In this document: piece by piece, positions 7,478-20,869 of the stretch | How positions within the stretch are numbered: the first letter of the stretch is position 1 | Layout: the number at the start of each line of letters is the position of its first letter | NCBI GenBank assembly: GCA_963665115.1 | Contig: OY762007.1 | Span: 768,001-832,000, forward strand | Reading direction: 5' to 3' | Length of the DNA stretch: 64,000 nt | DNA from: an uncultured Rivularia sp. | GTDB taxonomy: Bacteria; Cyanobacteriota; Cyanobacteriia; Cyanobacteriales; Nostocaceae | Position numbers and translations under genes: made by a program | The notes under the pieces: model-generated | Seen by the model: only the letters and a program-made list of their open reading frames with translations | Databases searched by the model: none | Told to the model about the DNA's origin: nothing

Positions 7478-7633
7478 TCAATGAGTTAGATAAGCAAGAC
7501 CAATTAAAACAGCCAACAGTCCAAAAGTAGTAAGTGCAAAATGCTTGAGCGAGGTGCCACCCTTTTGCACCATATTCCGCATTGCCAGTTTCGTATAGCT
7601 GGGTTTATCTTCCTTGGTAGAAGAGTCGTTCAT
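7478..7633 (-). CDS. small membrane protein (DUF3285-like)
   Basis: 'PSYTKLAMRNMVQKGGTSLKHFALT' plus C-terminal TM helix; lies between prfB and ybeY. Confidence 0.75.
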   Translation of the reverse strand: MNDSSTKEDKPSYTKLAMRNMVQKGGTSLKHFALTTFGLLAVLIGLAYLTH

Positions 7634-7853: not shown

Positions 7854-8973
7854 CTATTCCCCATTCTCCGTTACTTGGTTTTCCTGTCGCAGATAGGCTT
7901 GAATGAAGGAATCTAGTTCTCCATCCATCACGTCTGTTATGGCTGTTGTTTCGATGTTGGTACGCAAGTCTTTTACCATCTGGTAAGGATGGAATACATA
8001 GTTACGTATTTGATTTCCCCAACTTGCTTCCACCATATCACCGCGAATTTCAGCGACTTCTTGGGCGTGTTGTTCTTGAGCCACAACCAACAGCTTTGCT
8101 TTGAGACGAGCAAGGGCTTTTTCTTTGTTTTGCAGTTGCGATCGCTCTTCGGTACATCGCACTGCAATACTTGTGGGCAAGTGAACAATTCGGACTGCCG
8201 TTTCTACTTTGTTGACGTTTTGTCCGCCTTTACCGCCTGCCCTGGATGTAGTAATTTCTAAATCCTTATCGGGAATATCCAATTCTACATTGCCGTCTAT
8301 CTCAGGCATGACTTCTACGCCAGCAAAACTGGTTTGTCGCTTACCGTTAGCGTTGAAAGGAGAAATTCTAACTAACCGATGGGTACCCATTTCCGAACGC
8401 AAATACCCGTAGGCATAGCGCCCGGTAATTTCTAGAGTTACCGATTTTATACCAGCTTCATCTCCATCCGATTTATCGCTTATTGCAACCTTATAACCGT
8501 GACTTTCTCCCCAGCGCGTATACATTCGCAGCATCATTTCCGCCCAATCTTGAGCGTCAGTACCGCCAGCACCGGCTGTTATTGTTAGAGAAGCGCCTTT
8601 GCTATCGTAAGGGCCAGAAAGTAACTGCTGTAACTCCCACTGGTCGAGTTCGCGGCTGAGACTTGTAACGTTAGATACAGCTTCATTCAGTAGCGACTCG
8701 TCGGTATCGGACTCTAAAAGTTCGACAACTGCGCGGGTATCTTCTAAGCTAGAATGCCAGTTATGATACTGTTGCAGATAAGATTTAAGTTCGTTAAGCT
8801 CTTGCAGGGTATCTTGAGCTTGATTTTGATCTTCCCAAAATTCCGGCTGTGCTGCAATTTGTTCTAAATCTTGAATTTTAGCTTTGAGTGCGGGTAAGTC
8901 AAAGATAGTCCTGAGTTTTACCCAGGCGATTAGATAACGTTTCGATTTCCCGTTTGATCTCTAGAACTTCCAT
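7854..8973 (-). CDS. prfB: peptide chain release factor 2, programmed +1 frameshift (join 8902..8973 and 7854..8900; ~372 aa)
   Basis: [24 protein letters not shown] then CTT-TGA-C, continuing +1 as DLPALKA; GAGG, RISPF and GGQ motifs intact. Confidence 0.97.
8898..8912 (-). promoter_or_regulatory. prfB +1 frameshift cassette (AGGAC TAT CTT TGA C)
   Basis: Canonical CUU-UGA-C slippery site with an AGG SD-like element upstream. Confidence 0.93.
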
Positions 8974-9117
8974 ATTTGTTTGTGATTTTTATTAGCTTTG
9001 ATGCTTCTAGAATCTCAGTGTATTTTATATCCCTTTATGATTCTAGCGAAGGAATTGGGGATTGGCATGGGGGATTGGGGATTGGGGATTGGGGATTGGA
9101 TGTTAAGAATAAAAGAT

Positions 9118-9187
9118 GGTGCGTGACGGCAATTTCAATTTATCGGGCTATGCTTTGATAATTTATCGTAGCCGTCACGCACCCTAC
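9118..9187 (-). repeat. GTAG-type REP hairpin (GTAG-GGTGCGTGACGGC...GCCGTCACGCACC); further copies at 10363-10431 and 11592-11654
   Basis: 13-bp perfect inverted repeat, ~40-nt AT-rich loop, 5' GTAG on the minus strand; three copies bracket the RF2 paralogs. Confidence 0.8.
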
Positions 9188-10264
9188 AATTTGAGATAAG
9201 CTTTGGTGAACAAATCAAGGTTTCCTTTCATCACTTCTTCAATGTCAGTTGTTTCTACGTTGGTACGTAAATCTTTAACTTTTTGGTAAGGATGAAAGAT
9301 GTATTCGCGGATTGGGTTATTATCTACATTTTTGGATGATGGTTTTTTGACATCTGTAAGTGCAACACCTTGAGCTTGCATTAATGAAAATAGCTTACTT
9401 TTAACAACAGCTAAGGCTTTTTCCTTATTAAGCAATTGAGAACGTTTATCTCTAGAAGTGAAGGAAATACCAGTAGGAATATGAGTTACTTTCACTAATA
9501 CGCTTCTGCGGTTACTGTTAGGGTTGCTAGGCTGTACATAAAATTCCAAATCCTGTATCGGAATTTCAAATACCGATTCATCTATAATCGGCGTAACTTC
9601 CACCTTTGCAAAACTAGTTTTAATAGCAGCCTTTTTACAAAAAGGTGAAATTCGTTTCAGTTGATGAATTCCTTGCTCGGATTTGAGATATCCATAAGCA
9701 TACTTACCGAAAATTTCTAAAGTCACATAGTTAAAGCCAACCAATTCTCCTATCGACTCGTCCAAAAACCGGAGTTTGCAGTCATGGCGATCGCACCAAT
9801 CATCGTACATTTGTAGCAACATATGTACCCAATCTTGGGAATCTAGATCGTTATTACCAGCAGTAATAGTAATAAAAGCTCCTTTATCATCAAAAGGCTG
9901 ATTCAGCAGGCTGATGATTTCAACGTGTTTGAGTTGGCTGCTTAAGAAATCATAGTTAGTTTGCAATTCTTGCTGTAACTGCTCGTCAGCTTCAGATTCC
10001 AAAAGTTCTAAAGCTGCTTTGGCATTATTCAAACAAGTTCGCAATTCTTGATATTTTTCTTGTTCGTAGAATATCAAATAGGTTAATTCTTGAAGGGAGT
10101 TATGAGCAATTACGGTATCTTGCCAAAATTCAGGTTTTATAAGTAGCTTTTCTAGATCCCTTACTCTTGCACTTATTTTATGGATGTCAAAGACAGTGTT
10201 GAGGTTGGCTGAGGAACTTAGATAATGTTTCGATTTCGCGTTTTACTTTTGATAGTGCCAGCAT
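9184..10264 (-). CDS. RF2 paralog lacking GGQ, +1 frameshift at CTT-TGA-C (join 10190..10264 and 9184..10188; ~359 aa)
   Basis: [25 protein letters not shown], then +1 frame DIHKISARVRDLEK..PEFWQD runs open into the 9184..10077 ORF; RISPF present; GGQ loop replaced by VQPSNPNSNRRS. Confidence 0.85.
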
Positions 10265-10433
10265 ATTTTTCTCTTGTTGAGACACGTTAAATGAATTGTA
10301 GTACAAAAATGGGGATTGGTGATAGGGAATTGGGCATTGGGGATTGGGGATTAATAACAGGTGGTGCGTGACGGCAATTTCAATTTATTTCGTTATGTTT
10401 GATAATTTATTAGAGCCGTCACACACCCTACAA

Positions 10434-11514
10434 TTAGAAAGCTTGTTTGAGATACGCTTTGGTAAACAAATCTAAGTTTCCTTTCATCACTTCTTCAATG
10501 TCAGTTGTTTCTACGTCGGTACGTAAATCTTTAACTTTTTGGTAAGGATGAAAGATATATTCGCGGATTGGGTTATTATCTACATTTTTGGATGATGGTT
10601 TTTTGACATCTGTAAGTGCAACACCTTGAGCTTGCATTAATGAAAATAGCTTGCTTTTAACAACAGCTAAGGCTTTTTCCTTATTTTGCAATTGGGAACG
10701 TTTTTCTTTAGAAGTAAAGGAAATACCAGTAGGTATATGTGACATGGTTGCCCAAAAGTATCTTCCGTATGGACACACTTCACTGATTACTTCTAAATCT
10801 TTCATTGGAATCTCAAAATCCATCGACTCATCCACAATCGGGATAACTTCTACATCTGCAAAGCTGGTTTGAATTCTAGAATCTTCACTAAATGGTGAAA
10901 TTTGTCTTAATTGATGAATTCCTTGCTCGGATTTGAGATATCCATAAGCATACTTACCGAAAATTTCTAAAGTCACATAGTTAAAGCCACCCATTTCTCC
11001 TATCGACTCATCCACAAGCCGCGATTTGCAGTCATGGCTTTCACTCCAATGACAATACATCCGTAGCAGCATTTGCACCCAGCATTGAGAATCTGCATCA
11101 TTATTAACAGCAGTAATAGTAATGAAAGCTCCTTTATCATCAAAAGGCTGATTCAGAAGATTAAGAATCTCAACGTGTTTGAGTTCGTTGCTTAAGAAAT
11201 TGAAGTTGACTAGTAATTCTTGTTCTAACTGCTCGTCTGCTTCTGACTCCAGAAGTTCTAAAGCTGCTTGGATATTACCTAAACGAGTTTGCCATTCTTG
11301 ATATTGTTCTTGCTCGCAGAATATCAAATAGATTAATTCTTGAAGGGAGTTATGAGCAATTACGGTATTTTGCCAAAATTCAGGTTTAATAAGTAGCTTT
11401 TCTATATCCCGAATTTTTGTATTTAGTTGATGGATGCTAAAGACAGTCTTGAGGTTGGTTAAGGAACTTAGATAATGTTTCGATTTCGCGTTTTATTCCC
11501 AATATTTCTAACAT
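10434..11514 (-). CDS. second RF2 paralog lacking GGQ, +1 frameshift at CTT-TAG-C (join 11440..11514 and 10434..11438; ~359 aa)
   Basis: [25 protein letters not shown](TAG), then +1 frame SIHQLNTKIRDIEK..PEFWQN runs open into the 10434..11327 ORF; QISPF present; GGQ loop replaced by SEVCPYGRYFW. Confidence 0.83.
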
Positions 11515-11808
11515 GATTTTTCCTCGTTAGGTCACATTACATAAATAGTAGTACAAAAATGGGGATTGGGGATGGGGAATTAATAAAAGATGATGCGTGA
11601 CGGCAATTTCAATTTATTTCGTTATGTTTGATAATTAATCGTAGCCGTCACACAACGGCAATAACGCGGGAGGAATATCCACACCGCGTTTTGCCTCCCC
11701 TACAAATAAATTACTTTTTCAGTGACAGGAAAAGGGGATAGGGGGATGAGGAGAAATATTTAAAATTCTTAACTCATAACTCCTCACTCCTAACTCCTAA
11801 CTAATTTC

Positions 11809-13984: not shown

Positions 13985-15648
<1,664 letters not shown>

Positions 15649-17155: not shown

Positions 17156-17770
17156 ATGAATACAGTTGACAATCAACTACCATTTGTGTTTAGGGCATCT
17201 AATATTAACAAAATTCAGAAGCGCAACGCTAGGGTAGATAGAGAATTTACGGATAATAATCTAAATAGCGTTGATTTAAGCGGTACGGATTTGAGTTATA
17301 TCCGTTTAAATGAAGCTCAATTGATAAATGATTGTTTTGCAGAAAGCGATTTAAATTGGAATTTACTAAGCAATAATAATTTGGAAGACTTTGATTTTAG
17401 TAATGCAAACCTCAGTCTTGCTATACTTCGAGGTGCAAGTTTGAAAGGTGCTAATTTCTGTCTTGCTATTTTGCGCGGTACCGATTTGCAAGAGGCAGAC
17501 TTACAAGGAGCTATCTTAAGCGGTAGTATTCTCCAAGGTGCCAATTTGCGAGCAGCGAATCTCAGCAATGCTTATTTATTAGGGACAAATCTCAGTCATG
17601 CTGTTTTGAGTAATGCTGACTTAACTAATGCTCATTTACTTGGTGCAAATCTCTCCGATACCGATTTCGATGGCGCTACGGTTAATAATGCTCGATTTGG
17701 ATGGAATACAGGCATTTCTGAGAAGATGAAATTTGAATTGCAGCAGCAAGGGGCGATTTTTGAGGATTAG
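17156..17770 (+). CDS. pentapeptide repeat protein
   Basis: A(N/D)LxG repeats; C-terminal 'NARFGWNTGISE..ELQQQGAIFED'. Confidence 0.88.
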   Translation: MNTVDNQLPFVFRASNINKIQKRNARVDREFTDNNLNSVDLSGTDLSYIRLNEAQLINDCFAESDLNWNLLSNNNLEDFDFSNANLSLAILRGASLKGANFCLAILRGTDLQEADLQGAILSGSILQGANLRAANLSNAYLLGTNLSHAVLSNADLTNAHLLGANLSDTDFDGATVNNARFGWNTGISEKMKFELQQQGAIFED

Positions 17771-18399: not shown

Positions 18400-18942
18400 A
18401 TGGAATACCGTAGAGCAAAAATAGAGGGAGGTACTTTCTTTTTCACGGTTGTAACTCAAAATCGCCGCAAATTTTTGTGTCACGAAGAAAATATTGTATT
18501 GCTAAGAAAGATATTCAAACGGGTAATGCAGCAGCACCGCTTTACAATCGACGCAATAGTAATTTTACCCGAACATTTGCATTGTATTTGGACTTTACCA
18601 CCAAACGATGATGATTTTTCAACTCGTTGGAGCTTGATTAAAGGTGGTTTTAGTCGTCTTTGTCATCCCAAGTATAAAGGAAAAATATCTGCATCGCGCC
18701 AGCGTAAAAAAGAACAAGGAATTTGGCAACGTCGTTTTTGGGAACATCAAATCCAGGATGAAGCAGATTTTATTTACCATGTGGATTATATTCATTACAA
18801 CCCGGTGCGACATGGATATGTAAAAGCACCCAAGGATTGGAAATATTCAAGTTTTCATCGCGATGTTAAACGAGGTATTTATGATATTGATTGGGGTGCA
18901 GGAGTAGAATTAGAATTTCCCGATTGGGTGGGAAATGAATAA
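18400..18942 (+). mobile_element. REP-associated tyrosine transposase (RAYT/TnpA-REP, HUH Y1 family)
   Basis: GGTFFFTVVT, HUH motif PEHLH, WQRRFWEH, DYIHYNPV; flanked on both sides by GTAG REPs. Confidence 0.93.
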
Positions 18943-19500: not shown

Positions 19501-20046
19501 TCATCTCGCATCACGTCCAGTTCCCCACTGCGGACCGTGTATGATAGTTCCATCCGGCATAGTAGTATGCCAAATCAAATTCATGCCTCGGCAGATCAAG
19601 CCGTTACTGGTGTGGGCACCTTCAAAGTTAGCTTCAGCGAGAACAGCATATTCCAAGGTATCAAGATAGGCTCCGCGAAAACTAGTACCTATGCCGTTGA
19701 TACAATCAAGGTCGCTTCCCCGCAAATCGGTATCGATGAAGCCACTATGAGAAACGTTGGCACCATACAAATTGACATCCCGAAGGATTCCTTTGCTCAA
19801 ACAACAGCCACCCAGAAAAATCCCCCCCAAATCGGCTCCAGTCAAATCGGCTCCAATCAAGGCGACTTCATTGAAGTAAGCCCCTCGCAAGTTAATATCT
19901 CGCAAAACCACACCATCAAGATCGCTCCCTTCTCCACCATATTTGGAAGGGCGAAAACCATTCTCAAGCAATCTAATTCCAGCAAAGTTTCGTTCCCCAT
20001 CAGCATACCGTTCCAACAACTCGTCAGCAGTAATTTCCCAGACCAT
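19501..20046 (-). CDS. pentapeptide repeat protein ('ELLERY..GERNF' N-terminal type)
   Basis: ITADELLERYADGERNF, degenerate pentapeptides, C-terminal TMPDG. Confidence 0.85.
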   Translation of the reverse strand: MVWEITADELLERYADGERNFAGIRLLENGFRPSKYGGEGSDLDGVVLRDINLRGAYFNEVALIGADLTGADLGGIFLGGCCLSKGILRDVNLYGANVSHSGFIDTDLRGSDLDCINGIGTSFRGAYLDTLEYAVLAEANFEGAHTSNGLICRGMNLIWHTTMPDGTIIHGPQWGTGRDAR

Positions 20047-20087
20047 TATTTATTTTTCGCAATAACCAATACATACAACTCTAAACG

Positions 20088-20307
20088 GTAGGTTGGGTTA
20101 GACGCATGAGAAGATTTAATTATTAGCCGATTAATAAAATTGCGTCGTAACCCAACATCAATATTTTGGTTTCATATAAAATTGCCCAACATAAATTTTT
20201 TAATGAAGCGAGCTGTTTTGTTGGGTGTTTAGTATTTATTTTGATTTGAATTATTTCGTTAAGTTTTCCAGATTATGTTGGGTTTCACTCCGTTCAACCC
20301 AACCTAC
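20088..20307. repeat. REPIN copy
   Basis: Same terminal REPs and homologous core. Confidence 0.85.
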
Positions 20308-20359
20308 AAACTTATCATTGCAAGCTCCTTTATTAGTTGAGCCTCAAGCAACAGTTGAT

Positions 20360-20869
20360 TTACCAATCGTAGTCGGTAGTGTCGATAACAGTCCCGTCTT
20401 CCAAAGTCAACTGCATAGGTATACCAGTAAAATCGACGGTCTTGACATTTTTAGCTCCCGTGAGATCGGGACTAAATGGATCGATAACTCTAATTTCGGC
20501 ATAGAGCAAGTTAGCCCCTCTCATATTAGTACAATCCAACTCAGTCCATTCAAGAAAGGCTTCGGTCAAATTGGCTCCACTCAAATTGGCATTGGTAAGG
20601 TTGCTCTTGCTCAAGTCAACACGGGTCAAGTTGGCATTACTCAAATTAGCTCCAGCCAAATTAACCCCCCTCAAGTAAGCCTCAGTCAAATCGGCACTAC
20701 TGAGATTAATTCCACTCAAATCAGAAGTGATTCCCTGACGGTAGGGTTCGGTATAAGAATCAACGTCAAAGCGGCGGTGAACTCCACTAAGGTTAGCTCC
20801 TCTAAGGTCAACCTCACTAAAATCTCTCTCCCCAGCAGCATACCTTTCCAACAACTCCTCAGCAGTCAT
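20360..20869 (-). CDS. pentapeptide repeat protein ('ELLERY..GERDF' N-terminal type)
   Basis: MTAEELLERYAAGERDF, ANL repeats, C-terminal TLEDG; GAGG RBS. Confidence 0.87.
   Translation of the reverse strand: MTAEELLERYAAGERDFSEVDLRGANLSGVHRRFDVDSYTEPYRQGITSDLSGINLSSADLTEAYLRGVNLAGANLSNANLTRVDLSKSNLTNANLSGANLTEAFLEWTELDCTNMRGANLLYAEIRVIDPFSPDLTGAKNVKTVDFTGIPMQLTLEDGTVIDTTDYDW

Follow-up and report, generated by a model that had tools for sequence, protein, structure and literature searches.

Release factor 2 paralogs without the GGQ motif keep a stop-codon slip site beside prfB in an uncultured Rivularia

What use could a cyanobacterium have for a release factor that lacks the motif needed to release a peptide? 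This question is raised by a 64,000-nucleotide stretch of the genome of an uncultured Rivularia sp. (assembly GCA_963665115.1, contig OY762007.1, positions 768,001 to 832,000; hereafter, the window), the minus strand of which carries three co-oriented homologs of release factor 2 (RF2). In the reading direction, two copies without GGQ, copy B (11514-10434) and copy A (10264-9184), precede the canonical prfB gene (8973-7854). The starts of the two copies are 1250 bp apart. Each gene opens with a short first frame (24 codons in prfB, 25 in both copies), and the slip site that ends it reads TAT CTT TGA C in prfB, TGT CTT TGA C in copy A (10186-10195) and TGT CTT TAG C in copy B (11436-11445). Once shifted by +1, copies A and B encode 359 amino acids each with no further break, and prfB encodes 372, with GGQ at 8220-8228. 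An initial annotation, made from the DNA letters alone, had described three co-oriented homologs with this spacing, first frames of 24-25 codons ending in CTT and a stop, intact paralogs of ~359 residues and a replaced GGQ loop in both; all of this is borne out, including the loop sequences it quoted. It overlooked that the stop of copy B is TAG, which is specific to RF1 and not read by RF2. Copies A and B share 76% identity with one another and 45-47% with prfB, and their 3' ends have been homogenized (95% across 294 nt). The only other related genes in the genome are RF1 and a short match, possibly ArfB.

The array is not an artefact of assembly, a possibility that the initial annotation had raised. 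Contigs from three sequencing runs match both loop regions exactly and at a depth like that of the flanks, and the complete assemblies G003 and G026 have the identical three-gene order; we therefore reject this explanation. The runs that match best possibly come from the source sample itself, and no single piece from the runs covers the entire array. Both shift sites are also covered in a second strain, X4.

Copies A and B contain the PCRF and RF-1 Pfam domains above cut-off, and their long frames score 284 and 272 bits, respectively, with the RF2 model TIGR00020 (cut-off 370 bits, prfB 480 bits). The structure prediction suggested in the initial annotation agrees: an AlphaFold model of the copy A long frame (mean predicted local distance difference test score 75.6) finds RF2 structures as its best matches. 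It fits compact RF2 better (TM about 0.55 versus 0.36), which is expected when AlphaFold models a free chain, and we do not read it as a locked closed state. The scaffold is conserved among 105 intact copies (IREY in 99, VKDLRT in 95, an FW motif in domain 1 and RxQxxN in most). Of 115 aligned copies, 113 lack GGQ, which all 118 prfB sequences contain. The loops that replace it lie at 9493-9540 in copy A and 10745-10789 in copy B (limits approximate), and neither contains a glutamine. A full GGQ loop unlike that of prfB occurs in two Nostoc copies (L188 of G252 and L206 of G317) and in two database proteins (P0023 and P0039), which are possibly catalytically active alleles. The earlier proposal of catalytically dead release factor mimics thus appears sound for copies A and B, which have lost GGQ, and is weakened as a family-wide statement by a few Nostoc members that retain a GGQ loop.

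Related genes are found well beyond this genome. Of the 27 genus genomes surveyed (G000 included), 13 carry one or more intact copies, three have broken copies only, ten have none with this query, and one gave no prfB match. Across the taxonomic family, 124 of 389 genomes (nine of 68 genera, tallied by hand from the match table) contain at least two RF2-like matches. From 115 of these, and from six genomes with a partial or lone copy, we collected 126 copies in 121 genomes, nearly all of them directly upstream of prfB. Named carriers include Nostoc, Tolypothrix, Calothrix and Komarekiella, and databases commonly file the genes as 'PCRF domain-containing protein', or as RF2. Outside the family copies are rare, with counts that are lower bounds: a class-wide sample held a second match in four of 383 genomes, one of them genuine (G435, from another order and with the same gene order), and an order-wide sample in six of 368, of which the two checked (G818 and G859) both lack GGQ. 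Of 148 new representatives from a profile search, eight more lack GGQ; some of these are fragments, and proteins from Oscillatoria and Coleofasciculus are among them. Second matches in G519, G523 and G721 turned out to be canonical, partial or likely contaminant copies. A mobile origin was also considered and rejected, the plasmid and phage matches listed being only distant RF2 sequences with at most 37% identity (best 36-37%).

In a quick maximum likelihood tree, 20 sampled paralogs fall on one side of a branch within cyanobacterial RF2, with a Shimodaira-Hasegawa-like approximate likelihood ratio (SH-aLRT) support of 99; G435 forms a long branch, and G818 and G859 are not in the tree. Paralogs from different families and orders share 37-50% identity and have retained open frames. 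By sequence relationship, the two window genes belong to a long-standing cyanobacterial family of GGQ-less RF2 copies with a stop-codon slip site. The tandem copy in G818 (L304, 1236-2334) has TAT CTT TAA C at the slip site and DGQ in place of GGQ, and may be an independent or an early duplicate.

The slip site is the most constant part of these genes. In every one of the 120 copies whose 5' end can be read, the site is TGT CTT followed by a stop (102 TGA-C, 12 TAG-C, five TAA-C and one TGA-A). CTT is constant partly by construction, since sites were located through a CTTT motif close to where they should lie; the search set no condition on TGT or the stop. The corresponding site of prfB is TAT CTT TGA C in 120 of 120 genes. 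Six copies without a slip site are 5'-truncated fragments, and no copy has its two frames fused in-frame. Only four of 356 codons (ATG, TGT, CTT and one TGG) are invariant on the tree, where the median codon changes 21.5 times, and the slip-site stop has changed six times, each time to another stop. Copies outside the family keep CTT-stop as well, with TGA in G435 and TAA in G818 and G859. The three genomes with two intact copies (G000, G003 and G026) all have the TAG copy first and then the TGA copy, and the genus tree separates a TAG group from a mostly TGA group, with one exception. In a large survey by Prince and colleagues (PMC12421855), the available part of which reports TAG in none of 8,164 prfB motifs, this absence is taken as proof of the autoregulatory role of the site. 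The paralogs do use TAG, and their gate is therefore not one of RF2 autoregulation. A +1 shift is predicted from sequence at both window sites, with a stop that RF2 can read in copy A (UGA-gated) and one that it cannot in copy B (UAG-gated). The initial annotation had proposed that synthesis of the paralogs is coupled to termination efficiency; the invariance of the site supports such a coupling, and the part that does not stand is its restriction to RF2, because a site that tolerates TAG and TAA is, as judged from these codons, not RF2-specific. In prfB of G003 (L031, about 7540-7570), a 2-base insertion in a G run joins the two frames ahead of the slip site so that no frameshift is needed; it may be an assembly error.

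Codon models speak for purifying selection on the paralogs. The ratio of nonsynonymous to synonymous substitution rates (omega) is 0.293 for 16 intact copies of the genus versus 0.06 for prfB, and omega = 1 is rejected (2dL 424); the value near 1 that the initial annotation had named as a sign of decay is thus not seen. The 25-codon first frame alone has an omega of 0.35 and is therefore also under protein-level constraint. Estimates are 0.31 and 0.27 for the TAG and TGA subtypes and 0.32-0.50 in other genera, and omega = 1 is rejected in all sets fitted, from which broken copies were excluded. Region-wise values for the loop are unreliable (stuck at 1.0, with 9-20 codons in a doubtful alignment), and positive selection in the loops is not used as an argument here. 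In G016 (L042), a broken transposase-related gene sits in the paralog promoter, and the paralog lacks its start and its 3' third.

In Nostoc, 32 of 73 copies have an internal in-frame TGA followed by C, always at one position (about codon 167 of the long frame; for example L159, L166 and L168), where copies A and B of the window have a tyrosine. Omega downstream of this codon is 0.36, and the codon is TGG on four separate tips. It is likely read through as tryptophan and may constitute a second gate. Selenocysteine was rejected, the cut-offs for tRNA-Sec and SelA being passed by none of five genomes, and no conserved start codon for a restart lies close downstream.

The history of the replacement loop appears to depart from that of the rest of the gene. 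The copy B loop is identical in its DNA to that of G022 (0% difference, versus 5-28% in other segments of the gene) and differs by 77% from that of G003, with which the first 220 codons differ by 0-8%. The copy A loop differs by 6% from G014 and by 71% from G003, so that it shares its allele with G014 and not with its closest relatives. prfB has no comparable spike at the loop in the two pairs compared. Between strain X4 and the window, a 1.3-kb piece that includes prfB has 10 differing sites, and positions 9440-9527 have at least 25 together with six insertions or deletions. These patterns suggest that the loop moves between lineages; selection for its exchange is suggested too, if not firmly.

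Upstream of copies in five genera we find TGTAATAC AATA TGTAGTAA or a close variant, 35-45 nt ahead of the ATG, which takes the form TGTACTACAAT in the genus of the window. The tandem site matches that of TrcR, described in the available parts of two papers as a repressor of translational-stress genes in Anabaena (PMC10272220; PMC8421152), and the consensus used in our scans comes from those papers (PMC10272220) and not from the paralog genes. With at most two mismatches, it is present in 25 of 117 paralog upstream regions (six genera), versus none of 119 for prfB and 21 of 5944 for open reading frames of the genome, where the top matches include the trcR-like gene itself. In the window, a putative tandem TGTAGTAT-like site overlies the proposed -10 box of each copy: a candidate operator over TACAAT ahead of copy A (10285-10304; three mismatches to the tandem consensus, one half-site perfect) and a degenerate, weak element over a candidate -10 box ahead of copy B (11534-11554; four mismatches). 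A sigma-70 scan returned five sites versus 11 expected, none of them at the proposed -10 boxes, and an Rfam search gave no match.

The paralog sites resemble those of the TrcR regulon of Anabaena PCC 7120 (trn array, rtcB, rsgA and rimK) in having an 8-3/4-8 tandem site over the -10 box. The available part of the study of that regulon names no release factor gene among those changed more than 8-fold (PMC10272220); a single RF2 gene is listed (all0273), unchanged in the mutant, and its neighbors all0274 and all0275 are annotated as other proteins, so PCC 7120 seems to be without a paralog. Elsewhere in G000, a 111-residue open reading frame is preceded by a perfect match to the trcR promoter motif, and an 11-tRNA array (C1:2710034-2711354) resembles the cryptic trn operon in having a tandem TGTAGTAT box ahead of it. 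Strong tandem sites on C1 near 4418453, 7426857, 3445038 and 673071 mark candidate regulon members, and the reading frames behind them resemble, by eye, RNA ligases, an acetyltransferase and an unknown protein. At C1:203125-203273, two AT-rich tRNA-like genes stand in tandem, one with anticodon CAT and one with CTA, the latter called Pyl by ARAGORN; this is probably a degenerate duplicate and less probably a UAG-reading tRNA.

Because a candidate stress operator and a stop-codon gate are joined to an RF2 body without its catalytic loop, we tentatively read the paralogs, at somewhat less than even confidence, as a non-catalytic factor that protects or parks the ribosomal A site and is made when termination fails. 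The TrcR repressor would hold transcription down until stress releases it. Full-length protein would then require the +1 slip, which would be raised whenever a ribosome waits at the stop, such that copy B would report a shortage of RF1 and copy A one of RF2. The product, built on the RF2 scaffold, would enter stalled ribosomes whose A site is vacant and leave the peptide uncut, protecting these ribosomes from A-site nucleases, antibiotics or release factor-trapping peptides until termination recovers. Different threats would favor different versions of the loop predicted to face the peptidyl-transferase center, hence its variation and its exchange between strains. A more specific scheme is a two-channel termination-failure alarm, in which CUU UAG reads RF1 and CUU UGA reads RF2 beneath a TrcR operator and a dead RF2 with a swappable loop plugs the peptidyl-transferase center to protect or park stalled ribosomes. 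As a whole this scheme is doubtful; if true, it would be the first prfB-type frameshift to sense RF1 and the first bacterial hibernation or protection factor with an RF2 fold and allelic loop cassettes.

Several observations weigh against an A-site factor. The operator in the window is weak, as 145 of 5944 background regions reach three mismatches or fewer; its match is in part the -10 box itself, and it occurs in only five of 73 Nostoc copies and none of four copies from outside the family. The 7-bp hairpin upstream of the prfB slip site (8926-8910; hairpin and site together span 8898-8926), which has a folding energy of -3 kcal/mol or lower in all 120 prfB genes and is also described ahead of prfB sites in the available part of PMC12873609, is lost in copies A and B as in all 18 genus copies, and shifting may therefore be inefficient or rare. 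The lack of an internal Shine-Dalgarno sequence is, by the available text of PMC10798248, normal for cyanobacteria. SPF, reported as kept in the initial annotation, is indeed present in copies A and B and is no family trait, being found in 58 of 105 intact copies; the tip of helix alpha5 is scrambled across intact copies, and the RQ ahead of TSF and the switch-loop tryptophan are lost. We take the alpha5 tip, RQ and tryptophan to be codon-reading elements. Codon reading by the paralogs thus seems doubtful, as does the stop-codon-specific competitor that the initial annotation had put forward, and the loss of SPF and the alpha5 tip could mean that the proteins do not bind ribosomes at all. A window-by-window congruence scan did not isolate the loop within the genus, and in Nostoc congruence falls from the loop onward. 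Relatives do carry orthologs in the same place, the check proposed at the outset; 265 of 389 family genomes are without a second RF2 match, and 21 of 126 copies are broken by extra stops, shifts, lost starts or deletions, versus two irregular genes among 120 prfB. Of the refuting signs listed in the initial annotation, disrupted or absent orthologs are thus the only one seen, and only in part. The paralog is selected but dispensable. Relatives are not independent samples, and kinship limits the weight of all family counts.

The same features can be arranged differently. The protein might be a decoy that titrates a toxin, phage protein or peptide acting against release factors. When such an agent blocked RF1 or RF2, slipping would increase and more decoy would be made, so that the gate supplies the correct feedback, and loss of GGQ would remove the harm of surplus RF2, whose overexpression is toxic in Bacillus according to the part of PMC12421855 available. 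Fast turnover, patchy presence and swapped loops, seen here, are typical of conflict genes. We nevertheless regard a decoy as unlikely: the paralogs are just 45-47% identical to the resident RF2, the surfaces that a decoy should copy are those that have changed, no such inhibitor has been identified, and the plasmids and phages listed hold no close relative. An RNA-binding regulator acting off the ribosome, rationed by the slip site, has a precedent in PrfB3 of plant plastids, like the paralogs an RF2 duplicate without GGQ kept under selection, which has lost SPF as well and stabilizes petB mRNA (PMC5897788, as far as its text was available). PrfB3 differs in being nuclear-encoded in land plants and in its lack of SPF, which copies A and B keep, and the available text mentions no recoding gate. 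Eroded codon-reading elements and the Arg-, His- and aromatic-rich loops of Nostoc would suit an RNA-binding RF2 fold that protects specific RNAs. A fixed RNA target, however, leaves loop swapping between species and frequent loss unexplained and gives the TAG/TGA pairing no obvious role, and the proteins remain acidic (mean isoelectric point 5.3-6.6 by genus), which makes this reading quite improbable to us.

We think it equally improbable that the gene is a weakly useful, decaying duplicate, its slip site merely keeping a harmful dominant-negative product scarce and its tandem copies arising by recombination between flanking repeats. An omega five times that of prfB, the broken copies, the lost hairpin, repeats that bound each unit and the homogenized 3' ends all fit such a history, yet without a use the gene should have been lost or have evolved at an omega near 1. 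The sampled paralogs, from several families and orders, group as one clade in the quick tree (SH-aLRT 99), with frames still open at 37-50% identity, and omega = 1 is rejected in each set. Very little probability attaches, in our judgment, to a rescue factor that is still active or depends on a cofactor, either working with a partner to split or rescue stalled ribosomes in the manner of Dom34, or hydrolyzing peptidyl-tRNA independently of the codon in some alleles. The own-type GGQ loops (two of 115 aligned copies and two database proteins) and the DGQ of G818 are in its favor, and for the archaeal/eukaryotic fold the available part of PMC6514570 describes inactive release factor paralogs that act in rescue or shutdown. 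Dom34/Pelota and the inactive baeRF-1 families in that source are likewise catalytically inactive paralogs with a proposed or demonstrated A-site action under stress and an unconstrained loop length, but their aeRF1 fold is unrelated. For bacterial paralogs, the available section by Burroughs and Aravind names ArfB and PrfH alone, each of which has the catalytic glutamine (PMC6514570). PrfH (RFH), which acts with RtcB, and ArfB resemble the window genes as release factor paralogs for damaged or stalled ribosomes, and RtcB belongs to the TrcR regulon; they differ in keeping this glutamine and lacking domain 1, whereas copies A and B have domain 1 and no loop glutamine. Both score only 31-37 bits with the PrfH profile (cut-off 167), and the rtcB genes lie elsewhere. 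No partner gene travels with the family, whose neighbors are ordinary Bax1-I and prfB genes.

Whichever function applies, the family is real, selected and widespread. Its members descend directly from bacterial RF2, which they resemble in fold, domain order, first-frame length and the CTT-stop-C slip site. They differ in lacking GGQ, the upstream hairpin, an intact alpha5 tip and the switch-loop tryptophan, in falling below the TIGR00020 cut-off, in allowing TAG or TAA as the stop and in being dispensable, and their product would be unable to close an autoregulatory loop. The prfB frameshift is a textbook case of a gene regulating itself. Here, cyanobacteria of more than one order have retained a prfB-type site on a product predicted to be unable to terminate, and the site accepts TAG; it could thus work more generally, letting the synthesis of another protein respond when termination fails. 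Frequent in Nostoc and its relatives, the family is a candidate for ribosome protection in stress-tolerant cyanobacteria and a source of natural UAG-, UAA- and UGA-gated switches. The initial annotation knew of no description of such an array, and our literature search, which most subscription journals lie outside, likewise found no paper on the family.

Three REP-like (repetitive extragenic palindrome) hairpins flank the two duplicated units. One inverted repeat follows copy A (9108-9195; z -6.7, with 21 blastn matches in the genome), one follows copy B (10353-10438), and one lies upstream of copy B (11582-11667). Such repeats would offer an easy route for the gain and loss of copies. An IS200-like (Y1) transposase is encoded at 18400-18942 of the window and could be the REP-associated tyrosine transposase (RAYT)-type partner of these hairpins. 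A phosphoglucomutase-like gene at 13985-15642 is split into two overlapping frames near 14900-14960; the match in several relatives changes frame at the same query position, and the break in the window may be genome-specific or an error. Three genes at 19501-20869 and 17156-17770 resemble, by eye, pentapeptide-repeat genes; they lie near one another, two of them in tandem.

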